Shown: positions 14,989-24,735 of the stretch, piece by piece
Numbering within the stretch: the stretch's first letter is position 1
How the letters are laid out: every line of letters begins with the position of its first letter
Source of the DNA: Lentisphaerota bacterium
GTDB lineage: Bacteria > Verrucomicrobiota > Kiritimatiellia > RFP12 > JAAYLN01
Reading direction: 5' to 3'
NCBI GenBank assembly: GCA_012514915.1
Contig: JAAYZJ010000318.1
Span: 1 to 35,905, forward strand
Length of the DNA stretch: 35,905 bases
Notes under the pieces: generated by a model
What the model saw: only the letters and a program-made list of their open reading frames with translations
What the model was told of the DNA's origin: nothing
Databases searched by the model: none
Program-made: the position numbers and the translations under genes

Positions 14989-17145
14989 TCACGGCGTGAA
15001 CATCTGGAATTCGGCGGGGGCGAGGGTGATCGTGGTCGTCGTCTCGCGGTGGTGGAGCCGGATCGTGTGCGGCCGGTCGAAGTCGATGTTGTAGAGGCAG
15101 ATTTCGCCCTGCGCAGGGAAGTGCGTGAACGCGACATGGTCGCAGGCTGCGCCCGGCTCGATCCCGTCGTCGGTGATGAAGGTCTCGCCGCGCGTCTCGC
15201 GGGCGATCCTGCGGTAGACCGCGTGGATCAGGCCGAACCGGTTGTCACGGGTCGCGCTGGGCGCGCTGTCGTCCGCCAGGGCGCCGGGATACTCCCACAT
15301 GTTGAGGAAGTAGACCGTGCCCCTGCCCAGCCGGTGCCGCAGGAGGAGGGGCATGAACTGCTCGTCCTCGACGGCGACGACCTCGACCCCCGGCTGCATC
15401 TCGATGCACCCCAGGTGCGTCATGCAGATGCCGAACTTGCGGTGCGGCGAAACGCCCAGCGGCCGTTCTTTACCTGGCGTGACGGCCCAGTAGAACTGTT
15501 TGCCGCGGCCCGTCACCTTCACGCCGCAGAGCTCCGAGAAGTCGCCGCCGCGGATCAGCTCGTCGGCGCCGTAGCTCGTGAAGTTGCGGCGGGTGTTGGT
15601 GGAGAGGTGCGGGATCGAGACAAAAAGCGTCCCGCCCGCACGGACATAGGCGACGAGGGCATCGTACTGCCCCTCGGTGCAGGTGTTCCAGCCGGTGAAG
15701 AGCAACGCCGCGTAGTGTTGCGCGAGGAACGAGGGGTCGGGATCGACCGCGAAGCTCACGATGTCCGTGATGCCGTAGGGCGTGCCGGAGAGGAAGGGAT
15801 TCTTGAAGGGCCCCAGCACCGGAGGACGCGGGTAGAAGGTGTCCGCGAAGATCTCCCAGCCCCGCTCCGGGGCGGCGTGGAACCAGCGGGCGTCCTTGTC
15901 GGCCTGATCGTACTGCCCCGCGATGACCGCGTTGGGATGGAAGCCGCCCGGACCGGCCAGATCGAGGTTCCCCTTGATCGCCGCCACGCGCGCGGCCGGC
16001 TGGCCGGCCGGCGTGCCGCGGGTCTTCAGGAAATCGTAGAAGTCGGAGATGCGGCGGCGGTACTCGCGGCAGACGGGCGAATCGTAGTTCAAGTTCGGGT
16101 AGTGCCGGCGCGCGGCCTCGACATGCGGCGCGCTCAAGTGCGGATCGTTGACGTGGATGTTCCCCAGGCTGAGCTTCGGCACCTGGTGCATCGGCGTGTC
16201 CTCGATGTGGTCGCTCTGCTGCCACCAGTTGCCGCTCTCCACCAGCAGGAGCTTGCAGCCGGCCATGTACTTCATGTAGAGCGAGGCGGTCAGCAACGGC
16301 ATCCGGTGCGGGCAGGAGTACGGCAGCATGCCGTAGTGCTCGTGCGCCAGATCGGTCCCCCAGATCGGCAGGTTGAACTGCCGGTGGAGACCGCGCGACA
16401 GGGCCGAGGCGATGTTGAAGTGCGGCACGGCAAAATCCTCGACGGCGGGGATCTCGATACCGCCGATGATCTCGTAGTCCAGCGTGGCGATGCCGCCCGT
16501 GACCATCAGGCGCGACCAGCCGGCCGCCTTGCGACGCTGCACGCACGACCGCACGCTCGCGAGGAAGTTGGCGGCCAACTGGCGCAGGTCGCCGGCCGTT
16601 TTCCGCGCCAGCGCCAGCTCGGGATCCTCCGTTTCGTTGAGGCGGAAGGTGAACACCTCGCCGACGTTGCACCCCAGGAAGTTGTCCAGGTCGGGCTGCA
16701 TCCGGGCGAGCTGGCTCGGATCGGCGTCGGTGTAGATCGTCATCATCGCCAGCCCGAGCTCGCGGGCCTGGCGGAGCATGCGGACAAGCCCGGCGCCCAG
16801 ACGCTCCGGGTGCTTGGCGATCTCGTCCCAGTCCTGCGGCGTGAGGAAACGGCCGTTGGCCCAGTCGGGGCGCGGCACCTCGAGTCCGAGCTCGTCCAGC
16901 GCCAGGTAGTCGGCCATGGCCAGCAGGCTCTGCTGGGTGGCGCCCCCGTCCCAGATCGCCACCAGGTTTCCCTGGTTTTCGCGCACTGTGCGGTCGATGT
17001 ACCAGGCGGCATCGTGATCCTCCGAAACCCAGCTCGTGTAGTAGGGCCCCGAGGTCTGGAAGATCGTGTCGCCGCGGTGCAGGTAGACCGGTGTTCCCAG
17101 AAAGGTTCCGCAGGCGGGCAGGGTGATCGGCGCGGGGGTGGACAT
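14989..17145 (-). CDS. Hypothetical cytoplasmic protein (about 718 aa), possibly a glycoside-hydrolase-like three-domain protein
   Basis: The ORF runs 14989-17169. I prefer the second ATG at 17145 (MSTPAPI..) because a GGAG lies about 7 nt upstream and this avoids an 8-nt overlap with mutM. No signal peptide. The middle region (ALLFTGWN.., GGTLFVSIPH) resembles the glutamine-amidotransferase-like middle domain of GH42 enzymes. Family not recognised. Confidence 0.55.
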   Translation of the reverse strand: MSTPAPITLPACGTFLGTPVYLHRGDTIFQTSGPYYTSWVSEDHDAAWYIDRTVRENQGNLVAIWDGGATQQSLLAMADYLALDELGLEVPRPDWANGRFLTPQDWDEIAKHPERLGAGLVRMLRQARELGLAMMTIYTDADPSQLARMQPDLDNFLGCNVGEVFTFRLNETEDPELALARKTAGDLRQLAANFLASVRSCVQRRKAAGWSRLMVTGGIATLDYEIIGGIEIPAVEDFAVPHFNIASALSRGLHRQFNLPIWGTDLAHEHYGMLPYSCPHRMPLLTASLYMKYMAGCKLLLVESGNWWQQSDHIEDTPMHQVPKLSLGNIHVNDPHLSAPHVEAARRHYPNLNYDSPVCREYRRRISDFYDFLKTRGTPAGQPAARVAAIKGNLDLAGPGGFHPNAVIAGQYDQADKDARWFHAAPERGWEIFADTFYPRPPVLGPFKNPFLSGTPYGITDIVSFAVDPDPSFLAQHYAALLFTGWNTCTEGQYDALVAYVRAGGTLFVSIPHLSTNTRRNFTSYGADELIRGGDFSELCGVKVTGRGKQFYWAVTPGKERPLGVSPHRKFGICMTHLGCIEMQPGVEVVAVEDEQFMPLLLRHRLGRGTVYFLNMWEYPGALADDSAPSATRDNRFGLIHAVYRRIARETRGETFITDDGIEPGAACDHVAFTHFPAQGEICLYNIDFDRPHTIRLHHRETTTTITLAPAEFQMFTP

Positions 17146-17161
17146 GCGTGGCTCCGTTCTG

Positions 17162-17998
17162 TCAGTCATGGTTCAGGCGCTGGCACGCAGGACAGATGTG
17201 CGTGCCGCGCTGGGCGACAACCAGCCGCGCGAGCGTGGTTCCGCAGCGGGGACACGGCTCGCCGTCGCGGCGGAAGACATTGAGGCGGTCGGCGTGGCGG
17301 CCGCGCCGCCCCGCCACACTGTAGAAATTGGACTGGCCGCTCCCCAGCGTCGTGCCGCGGTCGCGCACGGCGCGGGCGAGGATTTGGCGGATGGCTCCGT
17401 GCAGCGCCCGCGCCTCGTCGGCCGTCAGGCTGCTCGCGGGCCGCCCGGGATGCACGCCGGCCTGCCACAGCGACTCGTCGACGTAGATATTGCCCAGCCC
17501 GGCCACCAGCCGCTGGTCGAGCAACAGCGGCTTGATCGCCCGCCCGCGCCGCGACAGCTCCCGGGCGAAGTCCGGCAGCTTGAACGCCGGACCGAGGGGT
17601 TCCGGGCCGAGATCCGCCAGCGGATCCGACGCCGGCGTGCCGAGCGCGAAGCGACCGAACTTGCGGGTGTCGTTAAACACGAGCAGACGCCCGTCGTCCA
17701 GCGCCAGACGCACATGATCGTGCGGCCCGCGAGGCTCGTCGCCCGCCGCGAAGCGGAGTTTGCCGGTCATGCGCAGGTGGAGGAGGACGCGCCGGCCGCC
17801 GTCGAGATCGAGGACGATGTACTTGCCCCGGCGTCCAACCGCGAGAATCGTTGCGCCGGTCAGCACGCGCCGCACCGCGACGGGATCGGGGCCGAAGGTG
17901 CGCGGCCAGCGCAGCTCGACCGCGACGATCCTGGCCCCGCACAGCCCGCCGGCGCGCAGGCCGCGGACGACGGTCTCGACTTCGGGCAGTTCAGGCAT
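17162..17998 (-). CDS. mutM: Formamidopyrimidine-DNA glycosylase
   Basis: 278 aa. The N-terminal MPELPEVE catalytic motif, the H2TH region and the C-terminal zinc finger CPRCGTTLARLVVAQRGTHICPACQ are present. Confidence 0.92.
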   Translation of the reverse strand: MPELPEVETVVRGLRAGGLCGARIVAVELRWPRTFGPDPVAVRRVLTGATILAVGRRGKYIVLDLDGGRRVLLHLRMTGKLRFAAGDEPRGPHDHVRLALDDGRLLVFNDTRKFGRFALGTPASDPLADLGPEPLGPAFKLPDFARELSRRGRAIKPLLLDQRLVAGLGNIYVDESLWQAGVHPGRPASSLTADEARALHGAIRQILARAVRDRGTTLGSGQSNFYSVAGRRGRHADRLNVFRRDGEPCPRCGTTLARLVVAQRGTHICPACQRLNHD

Positions 17999-18007
17999 GA
18001 ACGGACG

Positions 18008-19276
18008 CTATTCCCATTCGATGGTGGACGGCGGCTTGTTGGTGATGTCGTACACGACGCGGTTGACGCCCGGCACCTCCGTCGCGATCCGGCCGGCCAC
18101 GCCGATGAGGAATTCAATGGGCAGCGGCGCGACGGCGGCCGTCATGAAATCGAGCGTCTGCACGGCACGCAGGGCGACCACCGAGCCGACCGTGCGGGCA
18201 TCCTGGCTCACGCCCACCGTCTGAACCGGGGTGAGGACGGCAAAATACTGGCTGGCCAGCCCCTCCAGCCCATGCGCGGCCAGCGCCTCGCGGAAAATGG
18301 CGTCGGCCGCGCGCAGCCGGTCGAGTTTGGGCTTCGTCAGCTCGCCGAGACAGCGCACGCCGAGCCCCGGTCCCGGGAAGGGCTGCCGATCCGTGACGCT
18401 CGCGGGGATTCCCAGGCAGCGCCCCACGTCGCGCACCTCGTCCTTGAAGAGGTACTTGACCGGCTCGATGATCCCCTTGAAGGCAATCCGCTCGGGCAGA
18501 CCGCCGACGTTGTGGTGCGCCTTGACCGGCTTGCCGCCGTCCCAGCCGCTCTCAATGATGTCGGGGTAGATCGTCCCCTGGACCAGGAAGTCGAGCTCGC
18601 CCAGTTTGCGGGCCTCCTCCTCGAAGACCCGGATGAAGGCTTCGCCGATGATCTTGCGCTTGCCCTCGGGATCGGTCACGCCGGCCAGTAGGGCCAGAAA
18701 CCGATCCTCGGCATCGACGGCGACCAGGTTGATGCCGAACTGGCCGCGGAAAATGTCAATCACCTGGCGCGGCTCGTCCTGGCGCATGCAGCCATGGTCG
18801 ACAAACACGCAGGTGAGCTGAGGCCCGACGGCCCGGTGGAGCAGGACGGCGCACACGGAGGAGTCGACCCCGCCGGACATGGCGAGCAACACGCGCCGTT
18901 TGCCGATCTGGACCCGCAGGTCGGCGATGCTCTCCTCGATGAACCGCTCCGTGGTCCAGTCCTGCTTCAGCTTGCACTGGTCGACCAGGAACGTCTTGAG
19001 GGCGGCGTTAGCGTTGGGCGCGTCGCGCAGGTCGAGGACGGGGATATCAAGCGCCGCCAGGTCGGCCGCCGGCTCCCGGCCGAGCGTCCGCTCGCCAAAG
19101 GCGGCGCCGCGCTGCAGGACGATCGCCCGCGGGGCGAGCTTGCGGATGCGGTCGAGGGAGGCCGTAGAGGGCAGCACCTCGCTGTAGATGTGCAACTGGC
19201 GGACGGCCTTGGCGGCCGCCTGGGCGTTGATCGCCCCGAAATCGAGGATGACGACAGACTCGTGCGAATGGGACAT
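18008..19276 (-). CDS. guaA: GMP synthase-like protein with intact ATP-pyrophosphatase and dimerisation domains but a truncated, degenerate GATase domain
   Basis: Start at ATG 19276 (MSHSHESVVILDFG..), 422 aa versus about 525 for E. coli GuaA. P-loop SGGVDSS, CVFVDHGCMR, DPEGKRKIIG, QGTIYPDIIES, HHNVGGLP, PFPGPGLGVR and the C-terminus KPPSTIEWE are all conserved. The N-terminal 105 aa align only to the first 90 residues and the last 20 residues of the GATase domain. Confidence 0.85.
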   Translation of the reverse strand: MSHSHESVVILDFGAINAQAAAKAVRQLHIYSEVLPSTASLDRIRKLAPRAIVLQRGAAFGERTLGREPAADLAALDIPVLDLRDAPNANAALKTFLVDQCKLKQDWTTERFIEESIADLRVQIGKRRVLLAMSGGVDSSVCAVLLHRAVGPQLTCVFVDHGCMRQDEPRQVIDIFRGQFGINLVAVDAEDRFLALLAGVTDPEGKRKIIGEAFIRVFEEEARKLGELDFLVQGTIYPDIIESGWDGGKPVKAHHNVGGLPERIAFKGIIEPVKYLFKDEVRDVGRCLGIPASVTDRQPFPGPGLGVRCLGELTKPKLDRLRAADAIFREALAAHGLEGLASQYFAVLTPVQTVGVSQDARTVGSVVALRAVQTLDFMTAAVAPLPIEFLIGVAGRIATEVPGVNRVVYDITNKPPSTIEWE

Positions 19277-19356
19277 GACAAAAGGTTTCCTGGGTTCCCG
19301 CCAGTGTCGGACGCCGGGCCATCCGGCCGGTTTCAGGCGGATATCTGGCATCATAC

Positions 19357-19386
19357 CGGGTTACAACGGCCGTTCACAAGGAAATA
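19357..19386 (-). promoter_or_regulatory. Candidate promoter for guaA (TTGTGA-N18-TATGAT on the minus strand)
   Basis: On the minus strand, TTGTGA is at 19386-19381 and TATGAT at 19362-19357. This predicts a leader of about 75 nt. Called by eye only. Confidence 0.3.
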
Positions 19387-19467: not shown

Positions 19468-21789
19468 ATGACCTTTCGCACACTGGCCCTGAGCCTGGCC
19501 TGCATGTTGACGGCCGCCGCGGCGACGGCGAGCGTCGAACTGGCCGCCGGGGGCGCGAGCCGCTGCACCATCCTCGCGCCGGCGCGCCTGTTCATCGCCG
19601 ACCAGAAGACGCCCCCCGGCGCGGTCGGCGCCGCCGAGTTGGAGGCCAACCGCCGCCGCCTGCGGGCGTCCGTCCTCGATCTGGCCCACTATCTCGGCAC
19701 GCTCTCGGGGGCCTCGATCACCGTGGCGACCAACGCGTCCGATGTGCAGGGCGTCGCCGTGCGGATCGGTGAGGAGGCCGCCGCCGTGTTCGGCCCGGTC
19801 GGCCTCTCGGTCATGGGCGGACAGGGCTACCGGGTGGTCGTCGACAAGCGCGGCGTCGGGTTGTTCGGCGAGGCGGATCTGGGCACCAGCTATGCGATCT
19901 ACGATCTGCTGCACCGGCTCGGCTGCCGCTGGTACATGCCGGGCGAACTGGGCGAGGTCATCCCCGCCGTCTCGGACATCCGGCTCGACGAGCAGGATCG
20001 CACCGGGCGCCCACACACCCTCTACCGCGGCGTCTGGTATGCCGACGAGGCGTTCAAGCGGCGCAACCGGACGGGCGGCGTGCAGCTCAGCGCCGGTCAC
20101 GCGCTCGAGGGCTACATCGGCCAGGATGTGCGCGAGCAGCATCCCGACTGGCGGGCGGTCAGCGGCGGCAAGCCGGCCCACCGCCGCCTGAAATGGAGCA
20201 AGCCCGGCGTGGCCGAGGCGCTGGCCGACGGCATCATCGCGCGCCTCGACAAGACGGTCGGCACCCAGTCGATCTCGCTCTCGCCCGACGACGGCATGGG
20301 GTACGACGAGACCGACGACAAGACTCTCGATGCCGGCGACTGGGATTCGAGCATCGGGCAGGTCTCCATCACCGACCGCCAGGTCTGGCTGTGTAACCGC
20401 ATCATCGAGCGGGTCAACGCGAAGCACCCCGGCATCAAGTACGGCATGCTCGCCTACGGCGCCAGCACCCGCCCGCCGGTCCGCGAAAAGCCGCACGCGC
20501 AGCTCGTGCCGCAGATCGCGCCGATCACCTTCCGCCGCGCCCACCCGATGACCGACGACCGCGTCCCCGACAACAAAGAGCTGCGCGCGCTGATCGAGGG
20601 CTGGGCGAAGCTCAGCCCCGAACTCTCCTACTACTACTACGGCTGGTTTCTCGCCGAACCCTCGGCGCCCAACCCCTTCCTGACCAAATGGGCTGTCGAC
20701 GTCCCGATCGCGATGCGCAACAACTGCGCCTACTGGCAGCCCGAGACGCTGGCGAACTTCGAAACGACGATGCACGCCCTCTACATGAGCCTGCGCCTCG
20801 CCTGGGATCCGGCGGAAGACCCCTGGGCCGTCTACGACGAGATCAACACGCGCTTCTACGGACGGGCCGCCCCGCAGATGAAGGCGTACTGGGAACTCGT
20901 CGACAAGACCTGGCTCGACGTCCCCGAGTATTCCGGCTGCGGGTTCGGCCACATGCGCCGCTTCCCGCCCGAGGCGCTGGCGGCCTGGCGCGCCGCGATG
21001 GACGCGGCGCTGGCCGCCTGCACCTCCATCACCGAGTACCGCCGCGTCAAGCTGGCCGACACCTCGCTGCGCCTCTTCGATCTGTTCATGCAGCTCCGTC
21101 GCGATCTGGCCGACGGCCGCTGGACGACACTCGACCGCGACGTCCGGAAGTACATCGGCTGGATGGACGCCGCGGGCGACGAGTACGCCGCCAACTACGC
21201 GTTCGCCCGCGCCCCCTGGGCCTGGCACAAGTCGGTGAACCTCACCTATTTCCGCTCGTTCTACCAGGCGACCTACGACGACGCGGCGCGCCTGGCCGAC
21301 AAGAAGAAGTTCGCGATCCTGCTGCCGCGCCCACTCCGCGAATTCCGCTACCAGGCCGATCCCGACAAGCAGGGCGAGGCGGCCGGCTGGCAGGCGGCCG
21401 CGTTCGACGATGCCGCCTGGAGCACGACCGACGTCTGTCTGCAGACGTGGTCGTCGCTCGACCTGCATGCCTACATGGGCAGCGTCTGGTACCGCACCCG
21501 GGTCAAGCTTGGCACCCTGCCCACCGGCAAGCGGATCAAGCTCTGGATCGGCGCGACCGACGGCAGCGCCAAGGTGTTCGTCAACGGGCGCCACGTCCCC
21601 TACACGACCGGCGTCGACGAGACGCTCGATGTCGCCAACGGCTACTGTAAGCCTTTCCTGTTCGATGTGACCGATGCCGTGGCGGCGAATGCCGAGAACA
21701 CGCTGGCCATCCTGGCCACACGGACTTTTATCAACGAGTTGGGCACCGGGGGCCTGATGGCGCCCGTCACCCTTGTCGCCGAGCAATAG
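19468..21789 (+). CDS. Exported DUF4838-like protein with a C-terminal galactose-binding-like domain (putative glycoside hydrolase)
   Basis: 773 aa. Signal peptide MTFRTLALSLACMLTAAAATASV. The long central region is of the kind annotated DUF4838 in Bacteroidota and PVC genomes. The C-terminal YMGSVWYRTRVKL .. KLWIGATDGSAKVFVNGRHV matches the GH2-type sugar-binding jelly-roll pattern. SD GGGAGACGG lies upstream. Confidence 0.65.
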   Translation: MTFRTLALSLACMLTAAAATASVELAAGGASRCTILAPARLFIADQKTPPGAVGAAELEANRRRLRASVLDLAHYLGTLSGASITVATNASDVQGVAVRIGEEAAAVFGPVGLSVMGGQGYRVVVDKRGVGLFGEADLGTSYAIYDLLHRLGCRWYMPGELGEVIPAVSDIRLDEQDRTGRPHTLYRGVWYADEAFKRRNRTGGVQLSAGHALEGYIGQDVREQHPDWRAVSGGKPAHRRLKWSKPGVAEALADGIIARLDKTVGTQSISLSPDDGMGYDETDDKTLDAGDWDSSIGQVSITDRQVWLCNRIIERVNAKHPGIKYGMLAYGASTRPPVREKPHAQLVPQIAPITFRRAHPMTDDRVPDNKELRALIEGWAKLSPELSYYYYGWFLAEPSAPNPFLTKWAVDVPIAMRNNCAYWQPETLANFETTMHALYMSLRLAWDPAEDPWAVYDEINTRFYGRAAPQMKAYWELVDKTWLDVPEYSGCGFGHMRRFPPEALAAWRAAMDAALAACTSITEYRRVKLADTSLRLFDLFMQLRRDLADGRWTTLDRDVRKYIGWMDAAGDEYAANYAFARAPWAWHKSVNLTYFRSFYQATYDDAARLADKKKFAILLPRPLREFRYQADPDKQGEAAGWQAAAFDDAAWSTTDVCLQTWSSLDLHAYMGSVWYRTRVKLGTLPTGKRIKLWIGATDGSAKVFVNGRHVPYTTGVDETLDVANGYCKPFLFDVTDAVAANAENTLAILATRTFINELGTGGLMAPVTLVAEQ

Positions 21790-23313: not shown

Positions 23314-24735
23314 ATGAGTGCAAGCGATAACAAGCGGAAGACCCTGGTAGGGGCGATCCACCCCGATGTGCTGGCCTTCACGGTCGGGCGCGATCCCGAG
23401 CTCGATCTGCACCTGCTCGACTGGGACTGCCTCGGCAGCGCCGCGCACGTCACCATGCTCAGCCGCATGCGCATCCAGCCAACCCTCTTCACGGCCGTCG
23501 AGCGCGCGGCCGTCGTCGCCGAGCTCGCCGCCATCATGCGGGCGGGCCGGGCCGGCGCCTTCGCCATCTCCCAGGAGGATCAGGACGTCCATCTGGCCGT
23601 CGAACGCCGCCTGACCGAGAAGCTGGGCGACCTCGGCAAACGCATCCACACCGGCCGCAGCCGCAACGACCAGGTGGCCGTCGACCTGCGCCTGCATGCC
23701 CGTGACAACCTGCTGGGCGTGTGCGACGAGTGCGTCGCCCTCGCGCGCGCGCTGCTCGCGTTCGCGCGCCGCCACCGCGACGTTCCCATGGTCGGCCGCA
23801 CGCACCTCCAGCCCGCCATGCCCAGCTCGGTCGGCCTGTGGGCCTCGGGCTACGCCGAAGGGCTGCTCGACGACCTGCTGACGGTCGAGGCCGCCTACGC
23901 CTACGCCGACCGCTGCCCCCTCGGCTCGGCGGCCGGCTACGGCGTGCCGCTGCCCATCGACCGCCGGCTGACGGCCGACCTGCTCGGTTTCGCGGCGCCG
24001 ATCCACAATGTCTTCCACGCCAGCAACACCCGCGGCAAGTGCGAGTCGATCGTGCTCGGCGCCCTGGCGCAGATCATGCTCACCTCGTCGCGGCTCGCCG
24101 AGGATTTGATTCTCTTCACGATGCCCGAGTTCGGCTACTTCGCCCTGCCTCCCGAGTTGTGCACCGGCAGCAGCATCATGCCCCAGAAGTACAATCCCGA
24201 TGTGCTCGAACTGATCCGCGCCAAGACGGCGCGCGTCCTCGGGCACCAGACGGCGGTCGGCGCCATCCTCAAGGCGATGCCCGGTGGCTACAACCGCGAT
24301 CTGCAGGAAACCAAGGAGCTCTACCTGGATGGCGTCGCCGTCACGCGCGCCACCCTGCGGATCCTCCACCTGATGACGCAGGGGCTGACGGTCCGTCCCG
24401 ACCGCCTGCGCGCCGGTTTCGGTCCCGGCGTGTTCGCGACCGACCGCGCCCTCGAGCTGGTGGCGTCCGGCGTCCCCTTCCGCGAGGCCTACAGTCGCGT
24501 GCGGGGCAGCCTCGACACCCTGGCCGGCGCCGACCCCGATGCCGCCATCGCCGCCAAACGCCACCTGGGCGGCACGGCCGGGCTCGATCTCGACGGGCTG
24601 GCCGCGCGCGCCGAGGCCATCCGCCGGGAGACGCGGCGCCGGCGCCGGATCGCCCACGCCGCTTTTTCCCGGCTGCTGCACGTCGACTTCCAAACGCTCA
24701 CGCCCCGCGCGGGCCCACGTCAACAGGGAGCCTAA
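23314..24735 (+). CDS. argH: Argininosuccinate lyase
   Basis: 473 aa. Fumarate-lyase superfamily signature GSSIMPQKYNPD, plus TGRSRNDQV and HLQPAMP. Collinear with ArgH. Confidence 0.95.
   Translation: MSASDNKRKTLVGAIHPDVLAFTVGRDPELDLHLLDWDCLGSAAHVTMLSRMRIQPTLFTAVERAAVVAELAAIMRAGRAGAFAISQEDQDVHLAVERRLTEKLGDLGKRIHTGRSRNDQVAVDLRLHARDNLLGVCDECVALARALLAFARRHRDVPMVGRTHLQPAMPSSVGLWASGYAEGLLDDLLTVEAAYAYADRCPLGSAAGYGVPLPIDRRLTADLLGFAAPIHNVFHASNTRGKCESIVLGALAQIMLTSSRLAEDLILFTMPEFGYFALPPELCTGSSIMPQKYNPDVLELIRAKTARVLGHQTAVGAILKAMPGGYNRDLQETKELYLDGVAVTRATLRILHLMTQGLTVRPDRLRAGFGPGVFATDRALELVASGVPFREAYSRVRGSLDTLAGADPDAAIAAKRHLGGTAGLDLDGLAARAEAIRRETRRRRRIAHAAFSRLLHVDFQTLTPRAGPRQQGA

Follow-up and report, generated by a model that had tools for sequence, protein, structure and literature searches.

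The Short guaA Gene and Its Surroundings

The stretch of DNA analyzed here (the window, 35,905 nt) is contig C242 of a MAG of a Lentisphaerota bacterium (genome G000), an assembly of 574 contigs that is 87% complete with 4.3% contamination. A gene on its minus strand encodes a protein (P0001) that scores 503.5 bits, in two separate stretches, against NF000848, the NCBIfam model of full GuaA. The gene and its nearest landmarks are as follows.

18008..19276, minus strand: short-form guaA (422 amino acids plus stop)
19350..19379, minus strand: sigma-70-like promoter match TTGTGA-18-TATGAT, ~75 nt upstream of the ATG
17162..17998, minus strand: mutM/fpg (formamidopyrimidine-DNA glycosylase), 9 nt downstream of the short guaA
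19468–21789, upstream of and divergent from the short guaA: DUF4838 gene
23314–24735: argH, 4 kb from the short guaA and not a purine gene

The reading frame begins with the ATG at 19276 and is continuous, without internal stops, and the N-terminus of the protein reads MSHSHESVVILDFG. This start agrees with the N-termini of the family (M..H(D/E).VVILDFG) and is preceded by AGGA at 9–14 nt. An alternative start at the upstream ATG (19354) was rejected, since family N-termini begin at the equivalent of 19276 and the promoter-like site overlaps 19354. That site is a consensus match only, found as the single hit of a promoter scan in which 0.2 were expected.

No terminator separates the short guaA from mutM, and the two genes are probably co-transcribed. 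Beyond mutM lie a 726-amino acid ORF without a family match, an amidohydrolase gene, a ceramidase-like gene, and a gene for an FGGY kinase. The linkage to mutM is local to the window and is absent around homologues in the other genomes compared. Likewise, no conserved neighborhood of the short guaA was seen at a locus on a 501-kb ENA contig or at the Desulfobotulus locus, where the neighbors are unrelated.

Loss of the Glutaminase Domain

Protein P0001 aligns with NF000848 over amino acids 8–81 (profile positions 1–74) and again over amino acids 87–422 (profile positions 174–512). Its whole-protein score thus lies above the cut-off of 400 bits, yet positions 75–173 of the profile are skipped. 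Models of the glutamine amidotransferase (GATase) part fall below their cut-offs, with 34.6 bits for TIGR00888, the GuaA N-terminal model (cut-off 172.15), and 11.4 bits for the Pfam GATase family PF00117 (cut-off 22.8). The class I GATase with a Cys-His-Glu triad by which a glutamine-hydrolyzing GMP synthase (EC 6.3.5.2) is recognized is therefore absent from the protein. When compared with E. coli GuaA (1GPM), amino acids 3–59 correspond to residues 6–61 and amino acids 92–422 to residues 193–525, so that 32 residues stand in place of 131.

A MAFFT alignment with canonical sequences locates the changes. The LSGGP segment has become LQRGA, GIPVLGICYG has become DIPVLDLRD with an arginine at the cysteine position, and the segment that carries the His-Glu pair (FHPE) is missing, the sequence picking up again in the interdomain helix (ALKTFLVDQCKLKQDW). 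The first-pass annotation, made by eye, had described the same three departures from E. coli GuaA (QRGA for SGGP, Cys to Arg at 19025–19027, and about 100 absent residues followed by a jump to the interdomain helix), and the profile matches and the MAFFT alignment bear it out; a proper alignment does not recover the triad. The corresponding features, all within the short guaA, are listed below.

19013..19276, minus strand: vestigial GATase stub (amino acids 1–88), comprising b1-a1-b2-a2-b3-b4 of the class I amidotransferase fold, with no catalytic Cys, His, or Glu
19106..19114, minus strand: Q55-R56-G57, replacing S-G-G of the oxyanion-hole strand; invariant in the window-type clade
19025..19027, minus strand: codon of R84, aligned to the nucleophile Cys of GICYG; a variable position in the family
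18902..19012, minus strand: interdomain linker helix and pre-PP-loop helix (amino acids 89–125), aligned to E. coli residues 193 onward; helices at 89–100 and 109–124 in the AlphaFold2 model

With the region from the nucleophile cysteine through the His-Glu pair deleted, the protein is predicted from its sequence to be unable to hydrolyze glutamine.

The Synthetase Half

The remainder of the protein shows no such erosion. It scores 433.4 bits against TIGR00884 (guaA_Cterm), above the cut-off of 338.75, and 118.5 bits against PF00958 (GMP_synt_C), above the cut-off of 27; Pfam also finds PP-loop families. The following parts are present.

18287..18901, minus strand: ATP-pyrophosphatase (ATPPase) domain (amino acids 126–330), with PP-loop, lid motif, and a12 motif
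18857–18877, minus strand: PP-loop S134-S140 (SGGVDSS), within the ATPPase domain
Within the ATPPase domain, minus strand: lid motif K252-x-H254-H255-N256-VGGLP (KAHHNVGGLP) and a12 motif F277-K-D-E-V-R282 (FKDEVR)
18011..18286, minus strand: GMP_synt_C dimerization domain (amino acids 331–422), ending in KPPSTIEWE, the XMP-binding C-terminal loop

In an alignment of 54 sequences (A1), the PP-loop, K252, H254, H255, N256, K278, E280, R282, and R297-R308 are invariant, as are K414, P415, P416, T418, E420, W421, and E422 at the C-terminus, while D279 is kept in at least 90% of members. Roles in ATP and XMP binding, adenyl-XMP formation, and the reaction with ammonia have been assigned to the conserved ATPPase and C-terminal residues (bioRxiv 10.1101/808618; PMC10526850). 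Judging from these alignments, every known ATP-binding, XMP-binding, and catalytic residue is retained in the synthetase half.

A Canonical guaA in the Same Genome

The window genome also holds a canonical guaA, split over two contig ends. One piece (on C127) encodes a GATase with GICYG and FHPE and the other (on C137) the synthetase; they share an overlap of 42 identical residues and together give a protein of 514 amino acids. In the window organism, the short gene is therefore a paralog, or second copy. A separate GATase subunit of the GuaA type was not found in this genome, where the canonical guaA gives the sole match to the guaA_Nterm model over its cut-off. The only other GuaA-like GATase, on C539, reaches 94.8 bits against that model. 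It was rejected as a GuaA-A subunit since it follows trpE, and it is assigned to TrpG/PabA.

Distribution

The deletion is common to many relatives. A search of 5.8 billion proteins returned >100 clusters of 419–424 amino acids with the same architecture and 55–99% identity; those that have a name are annotated as “glutamine-hydrolyzing GMP synthase”. When species-representative genomes were scanned with a stub profile as the pattern, the window-type form turned up in Kiritimatiellia, Lentisphaerales/Victivallales, and Opitutales, and also in Desulfobotulus alkaliphilus (an isolate), Desulfobacterales MAGs, and one MAG labeled Planctomycetota; more distant short forms occur in Bacillota. The stub profile (A2) gave 5,358 matches at E ≤ 0.001, and two at E ≤ 1e-30, in a library of representatives clustered at 50% identity. 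These matches are mostly fragments or the N-termini of canonical GuaA because clustering at 50% collapses the family. Source names of many members refer to anaerobic digesters, rumen, rectum, and termite gut.

A census was taken of 150 genomes of the Verrucomicrobiota sensu lato (GTDB), each ≥90% complete, with homologues accepted at E ≤ 1e-20. The short form was scored there as a single continuous match to residues ~2–422, mostly in a frame of 423–500 amino acids. It was found in 41 of the 150 genomes, and an ATPPase-only form (mostly 329–347 amino acids) in 11. In 18 of the 52 genomes concerned (14 with the short form and four with the ATPPase-only form), such a gene has no other guaA homologue beside it, and a canonical guaA coexists with the short form in 27 of the 41. 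Near relatives G003, G006, G012, G014, and G028 also have the short form only, as does a long-read Kiritimatiellia MAG (G175). Both forms are carried by Desulfobotulus alkaliphilus, a Desulfobacterales MAG, a Victivallales MAG, and a congener of the window genome. While incompleteness of a MAG may hide a canonical copy in any single genome, it would hardly do so in at least 18 genomes of 91–99% completeness.

Sixteen sole-copy genomes (13 of the census 18 plus three further) contain no GuaA-type GATase above the guaA_Nterm cut-off of 172 bits, and the same model does find the archaeal glutaminase subunits in control genomes. In two of the genomes (G010 and G028) the stub itself is the sole match to the model, and in G019, which is 99% complete, there is none. 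The gene for IMP dehydrogenase, guaB, was found in the window genome and in each of the four sole-copy genomes examined for it (G010, G022, G019, and G175); a distance of 2.5 kb separates it from the short guaA in G175. With guaB present and a GuaA-type glutaminase absent, XMP would therefore be made in cells in which the only enzyme converting XMP to GMP is without a glutaminase.

Phylogeny and Repeated Truncation

A quick IQ-TREE analysis of the ATPPase and dimerization parts of 74 sequences places P0001 in a clade (99% support) of 18 short and five ATPPase-only forms. The latter branch from within it, a position that points to a further step in which the stub was lost. The clade's neighbors in the tree are Bacillota-like sequences, both short and canonical, rather than the canonical GuaAs of Verrucomicrobiota, the window genome's own copy included. 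A second clade of short forms from nine genomes (99%) is sister (97%) to the canonical GuaAs of the same genomes, and a third (100%) unites three short and six ATPPase-only forms. The well-supported branches of this quick tree require at least three changes of state, and a single origin of all GATase-less forms is disfavored by an AU test (p = 0.0245), which, with a quick tree, is moderate evidence.

The boundaries of the deletion are the same in all lineages, from directly after G(I/V)PVL, at the nucleophile elbow, to just past FHPE..HT. An intermediate is seen in P0109, a Bacillota-like protein of 452 amino acids that retains QFRPEE. It seems from the sequences and the tree that this truncation evolved more than once, in at least three independent events. 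Such repetition fits the fold, because half of the a/b sheet, made up of the first four strands, is a self-contained unit.

Members of the window-type clade share the motifs QRG, GERT.GR, and VDHGCMR and the change W382V in the dimerization domain. A comparison of the ATPPase and dimerization parts of the three short lineages yielded only V240I, W382V, and G358(N/D) as convergent substitutions, with no clear link to ammonia.

The Retained Stub

Although it has lost its catalytic residues, the stub is conserved. Within the window-type clade the mean pairwise identity is 58% for the stub (amino acids 1–88), 65% for the dimerization domain, and 77% for the ATPPase. Seventeen stub residues are invariant in 26 diverse members (D12, F13, G14, N17, Q19, A22, K23, R26, Y31, E33, V34, P36, Q55, R56, G57, P79, and D82). 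This pattern indicates that the stub is under constraint.

An AlphaFold2 model of P0001, run with the family alignment, has a pLDDT of 87.2 and a pTM of 0.86, with values of 84–96 for the stub block. The stub is predicted to contain strands b1 (7–12), b2 (31–36), b3 (51–55), and b4 (80–82) and helices a1 (20–27) and a2 (41–46), followed by the linker helix (89–100). Only the lid loop (238–255) is poorly defined, as it is in crystal structures. In Foldseek comparisons the query-normalized TM-score of the model is 0.84–0.88 to full-length bacterial GMP synthases (GMPS) versus 0.65 to ATPPase-only subunits; the stub is thus modeled where the GATase sits in the 0-degree state.

A reason for its retention is suggested by the enzyme of Plasmodium falciparum. 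There, salt bridges from Lys24 to Asp412/Asp413 join GATase helix a1 to helix a12 of the ATPPase, which bears catalytic lysines as well, Arg25 touches the His/Glu loop, and the K24L substitution halves even the NH4Cl-dependent kcat (bioRxiv 10.1101/808618). The a1 motif R-R-V-R-E corresponds to K23-A24-V25-R26-Q27 in P0001. The positions that contact a12 are retained and invariant, and alanine occupies the one that would touch the deleted His/Glu loop. By this analogy, helix a1 of the stub (K23, R26) would brace helix a12 of the ATPPase (D279, E280), the carrier of the catalytic lysines. We infer from the sequence and the overall TM-scores that a1 contacts a12 and that the stub may have been kept as a buttress of the ATPPase.

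The stub might also have acquired something new. In the window-type clade, conserved polar residues (N17, Q19, Q55-R56-G57, and D82) are placed at the C-terminal ends of b1, b3, and b4, the former glutaminase pocket. They could represent a remodeled ligand site, either for capture or gating of NH3/NH4+ that lowers the Km for ammonia or for allosteric sensing of nitrogen or nucleotide status. Together with at least three origins, such a site would define a new, convergent class of ammonia-specialized GMP synthetases with its own regulatory logic. This reading is speculative and has only an outside chance of being correct.

Source of Nitrogen and Alternative Explanations

The protein is probably an ammonia-dependent GMP synthetase (EC 6.3.4.1-like) in which the stub serves as structural support of the ATPPase; ammonia as the substrate is suggested by the architecture and by the sole-copy genomes that keep guaB. 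It would adenylate XMP and then aminate it with free cytoplasmic NH3, acting as an XMP:ammonia ligase. Direct use of NH3 would save the ATP spent by glutamine synthetase, which could plausibly benefit cells in anoxic habitats rich in ammonium and poor in energy. In the window organism the short form would work beside the canonical glutamine-dependent GuaA, and in many relatives it would be the sole GMP synthetase. Where the two coexist, they may be isozymes for ammonium-replete versus nitrogen-limited conditions, and in genomes with a canonical guaA, the window genome included, most of the flux may not pass through the short form.

The ATPPase module of GMPS works independently of the GATase when supplied with external ammonia (PMC10526850). 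The ATPPase subunit of Methanocaldococcus jannaschii alone has a Km(NH4Cl) of 4.1 mM at pH 7, with a kcat that matches the glutamine-dependent rate (bioRxiv 10.1101/2022.02.27.481963). The characterized two-domain enzymes, however, have a poor Km for NH4+ of 26–174 mM (PMC10526850), and given these values an efficient NH3-dependent short form is an assumption.

The first-pass annotation had named three options for the enzyme, namely ammonia dependence, a separate GATase subunit, or a paralog with another role. The short gene is literally a paralog in the window genome, and sole-copy status, the presence of guaB, and the lack of a GuaA-type glutaminase favor ammonia dependence over a recruited subunit or a different function. 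A different function could mean a heterodimer partner of canonical GuaA, regulatory or pseudo-enzymatic in nature, or else an enzyme that aminates or adenylates a different substrate. The coexistence of both forms in the window genome and in two-thirds of the sampled short-form genomes would suit it, as would the clade-specific motifs and W382V. It is nevertheless unlikely, since 14 near-complete short-form genomes have no other guaA homologue, guaB was present in both of the two checked among them (G010 and G022) as well as in G175 and G019, the XMP- and ATP-binding and catalytic residues are all invariant, and the score on guaA_Cterm, an equivalog-domain model, is high.

Glutamine could still be the nitrogen source if a glutaminase acted in trans, be it a dedicated subunit like that of archaea or a promiscuous class I amidotransferase such as TrpG/PabA. 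Archaeal two-subunit enzymes exist whose subunits associate only transiently (bioRxiv 10.1101/2022.02.27.481963; PMC10526850). The window genome has its stand-alone TrpG-like GATase on C539, weak class I GATase matches occur in most genomes checked, and subunits such as TrpG/PabA and HisH are possible ammonia donors. Such an arrangement is quite improbable, though: the GATase on C539 adjoins trpE, no match of ≥172 bits was found in the 16 sole-copy genomes with a model that detects the archaeal subunits in controls, none of the loci compared has a glutaminase gene near the short guaA, and the docking place of a GATase is, in the predicted structure, taken by the stub. The least credible account is that of a decaying pseudogene, or of an error of assembly or sequencing that makes 100 residues appear to be missing. 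The genome is indeed a fragmented MAG, but the frame is continuous over 422 amino acids, the same length and boundaries recur in >100 clusters from independent assemblies that include isolates (Desulfobotulus) and a long-read MAG, and stub and synthetase are both strongly conserved. The earlier judgment that the synthetase is fully conserved and the gene not a decayed one therefore stands, and no frameshift conceals the absent segment. Ammonia dependence thus remains the preferred reading.

Comparison with Known Systems and Significance

Two GMPS architectures are recognized, the two-domain type and, in archaea, the two-subunit type, and in all of the enzymes studied, nitrogen is preferentially drawn from glutamine under physiological conditions (PMC10526850). 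GMPS reviews, primary papers, and full-text literature searches, the coverage of which is incomplete, yielded no description of a truncated form. P0001 most likely represents a third architecture, the short form, beside these two.

Like the two-domain bacterial GuaA (EC 6.3.5.2; for instance, E. coli 1GPM, Acinetobacter baumannii 7SBC, and Neisseria gonorrhoeae 5TW7), it has matching ATPPase and dimerization parts (E = 5e-116 to 1GPM) with the full set of catalytic motifs, the same order of parts, the first ~60–80 residues of the GATase fold, the interdomain helix, and a similar predicted fold (TM 0.84–0.88). Unlike these enzymes, it is without ~100 GATase residues, including the equivalents of Cys86, His181, and Glu183, and has QRGA for SGGP. 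With the archaeal ATPPase subunit (GuaA-B; Pyrococcus horikoshii 2DPL, M. jannaschii 6JP9) it shares a synthetase without its own glutaminase and an ATPPase identity of ~46–48%. In contrast to the archaeal system, where a dedicated GATase gene exists, none was found here, and P0001 keeps a covalently attached stub. The bacterial ATPPase-only forms (329–347 amino acids) branch within the clades that hold the short forms.

A precedent comes from NadE, a PP-loop relative whose family of amidating enzymes has both glutaminase-fused members and glutaminase-free members that use ammonia. The glutaminase of NadE is of the nitrilase type, and NH3-dependent NadE is without a leftover stub.

One consequence concerns annotation. 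Short forms score above the cut-off of the “glutamine-hydrolyzing GMP synthase” model and are given EC 6.3.5.2, a systematic error that affects reconstructions of nitrogen and energy metabolism; going by the missing triad, the PGAP-style name “glutamine-hydrolyzing” is wrong for the short form. The short form also illustrates repeated convergent domain decay with identical boundaries. It offers a natural system in which an ATPPase site would acquire NH3 without a channel and in which the contribution of helix a1 to ATPPase catalysis can be addressed. Since cultured Desulfobotulus strains carry both forms, they are a tractable test organism. If many anaerobic Verrucomicrobiota, Kiritimatiellia, and relatives have no GMP synthetase other than the short form, then guanine nucleotide synthesis in these bacteria would depend directly on free ammonia.

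Canonical guaA in the same genome

The genome of the window also carries a full-length guaA with a complete GATase domain, here called canonical, which is split between two contig ends as follows:

C127, 7876-8503, + strand: first piece (GATase part) of canonical guaA, locus L003, at a contig end
C137, 8904-9926, - strand: second piece (synthetase part) of canonical guaA, locus L001, at a contig end

The overlap between the two pieces spans 42 identical residues, and merging them yields a protein of 514 aa. The break in the assembly falls exactly where the stretch shared with the short paralogue begins.

Residue changes and an intermediate form

Two substitutions recur in all three GATase-less lineages. 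Where the dimerisation domain of canonical GuaA reads MTA.W, they have Val instead of Trp (V382 in the window protein, 18131-18133), and the Gly of GVMGDGR is likewise altered (Q358, 18203-18205). Most members of the clade that holds the window protein have a Cys at about its position 88 (PVLDL....CD..TL); this residue is not essential to the family, since the window protein itself carries Asn there (N88, 19013-19015). An intermediate form is represented by P0109, a Bacillota-like protein of 452 aa in which GIPVLG is retained, the deletion is shorter, and a remnant of the His-Glu segment persists as QFRPEE, with Arg in place of His.

Neighbouring genes and taxonomic labels

Two further features of the window are:

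14989-17169, - strand: ORF of 726 aa, downstream of mutM
19468-21789, + strand: exported DUF4838 protein (Pfam DUF4838, 109.6 bits), divergent from the short guaA

The 726-aa ORF had no match in Pfam or NCBIfam. Because it overlaps a long ORF on the opposite strand, it is uncertain whether it codes for a protein. Labels for the taxonomy of the window genome's group disagree among themselves: most close protein matches are labelled Kiritimatiellia, whereas a congener of the window genome (G176, identical to G004) is listed at NCBI as "uncultured Lentisphaerales bacterium".

Paired guaA copies in other genomes

In genome G127 (locus L035, C38:11300-14300), an ATPPase-only guaA directly adjoins the canonical gene, following it in tandem after ~90 nt. 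In G068, 1.7 kb separates the canonical guaA from a short form (C1:178204-182138). The tandem and the pair appear to capture stages of a process in which guaA is first duplicated and then reduced.
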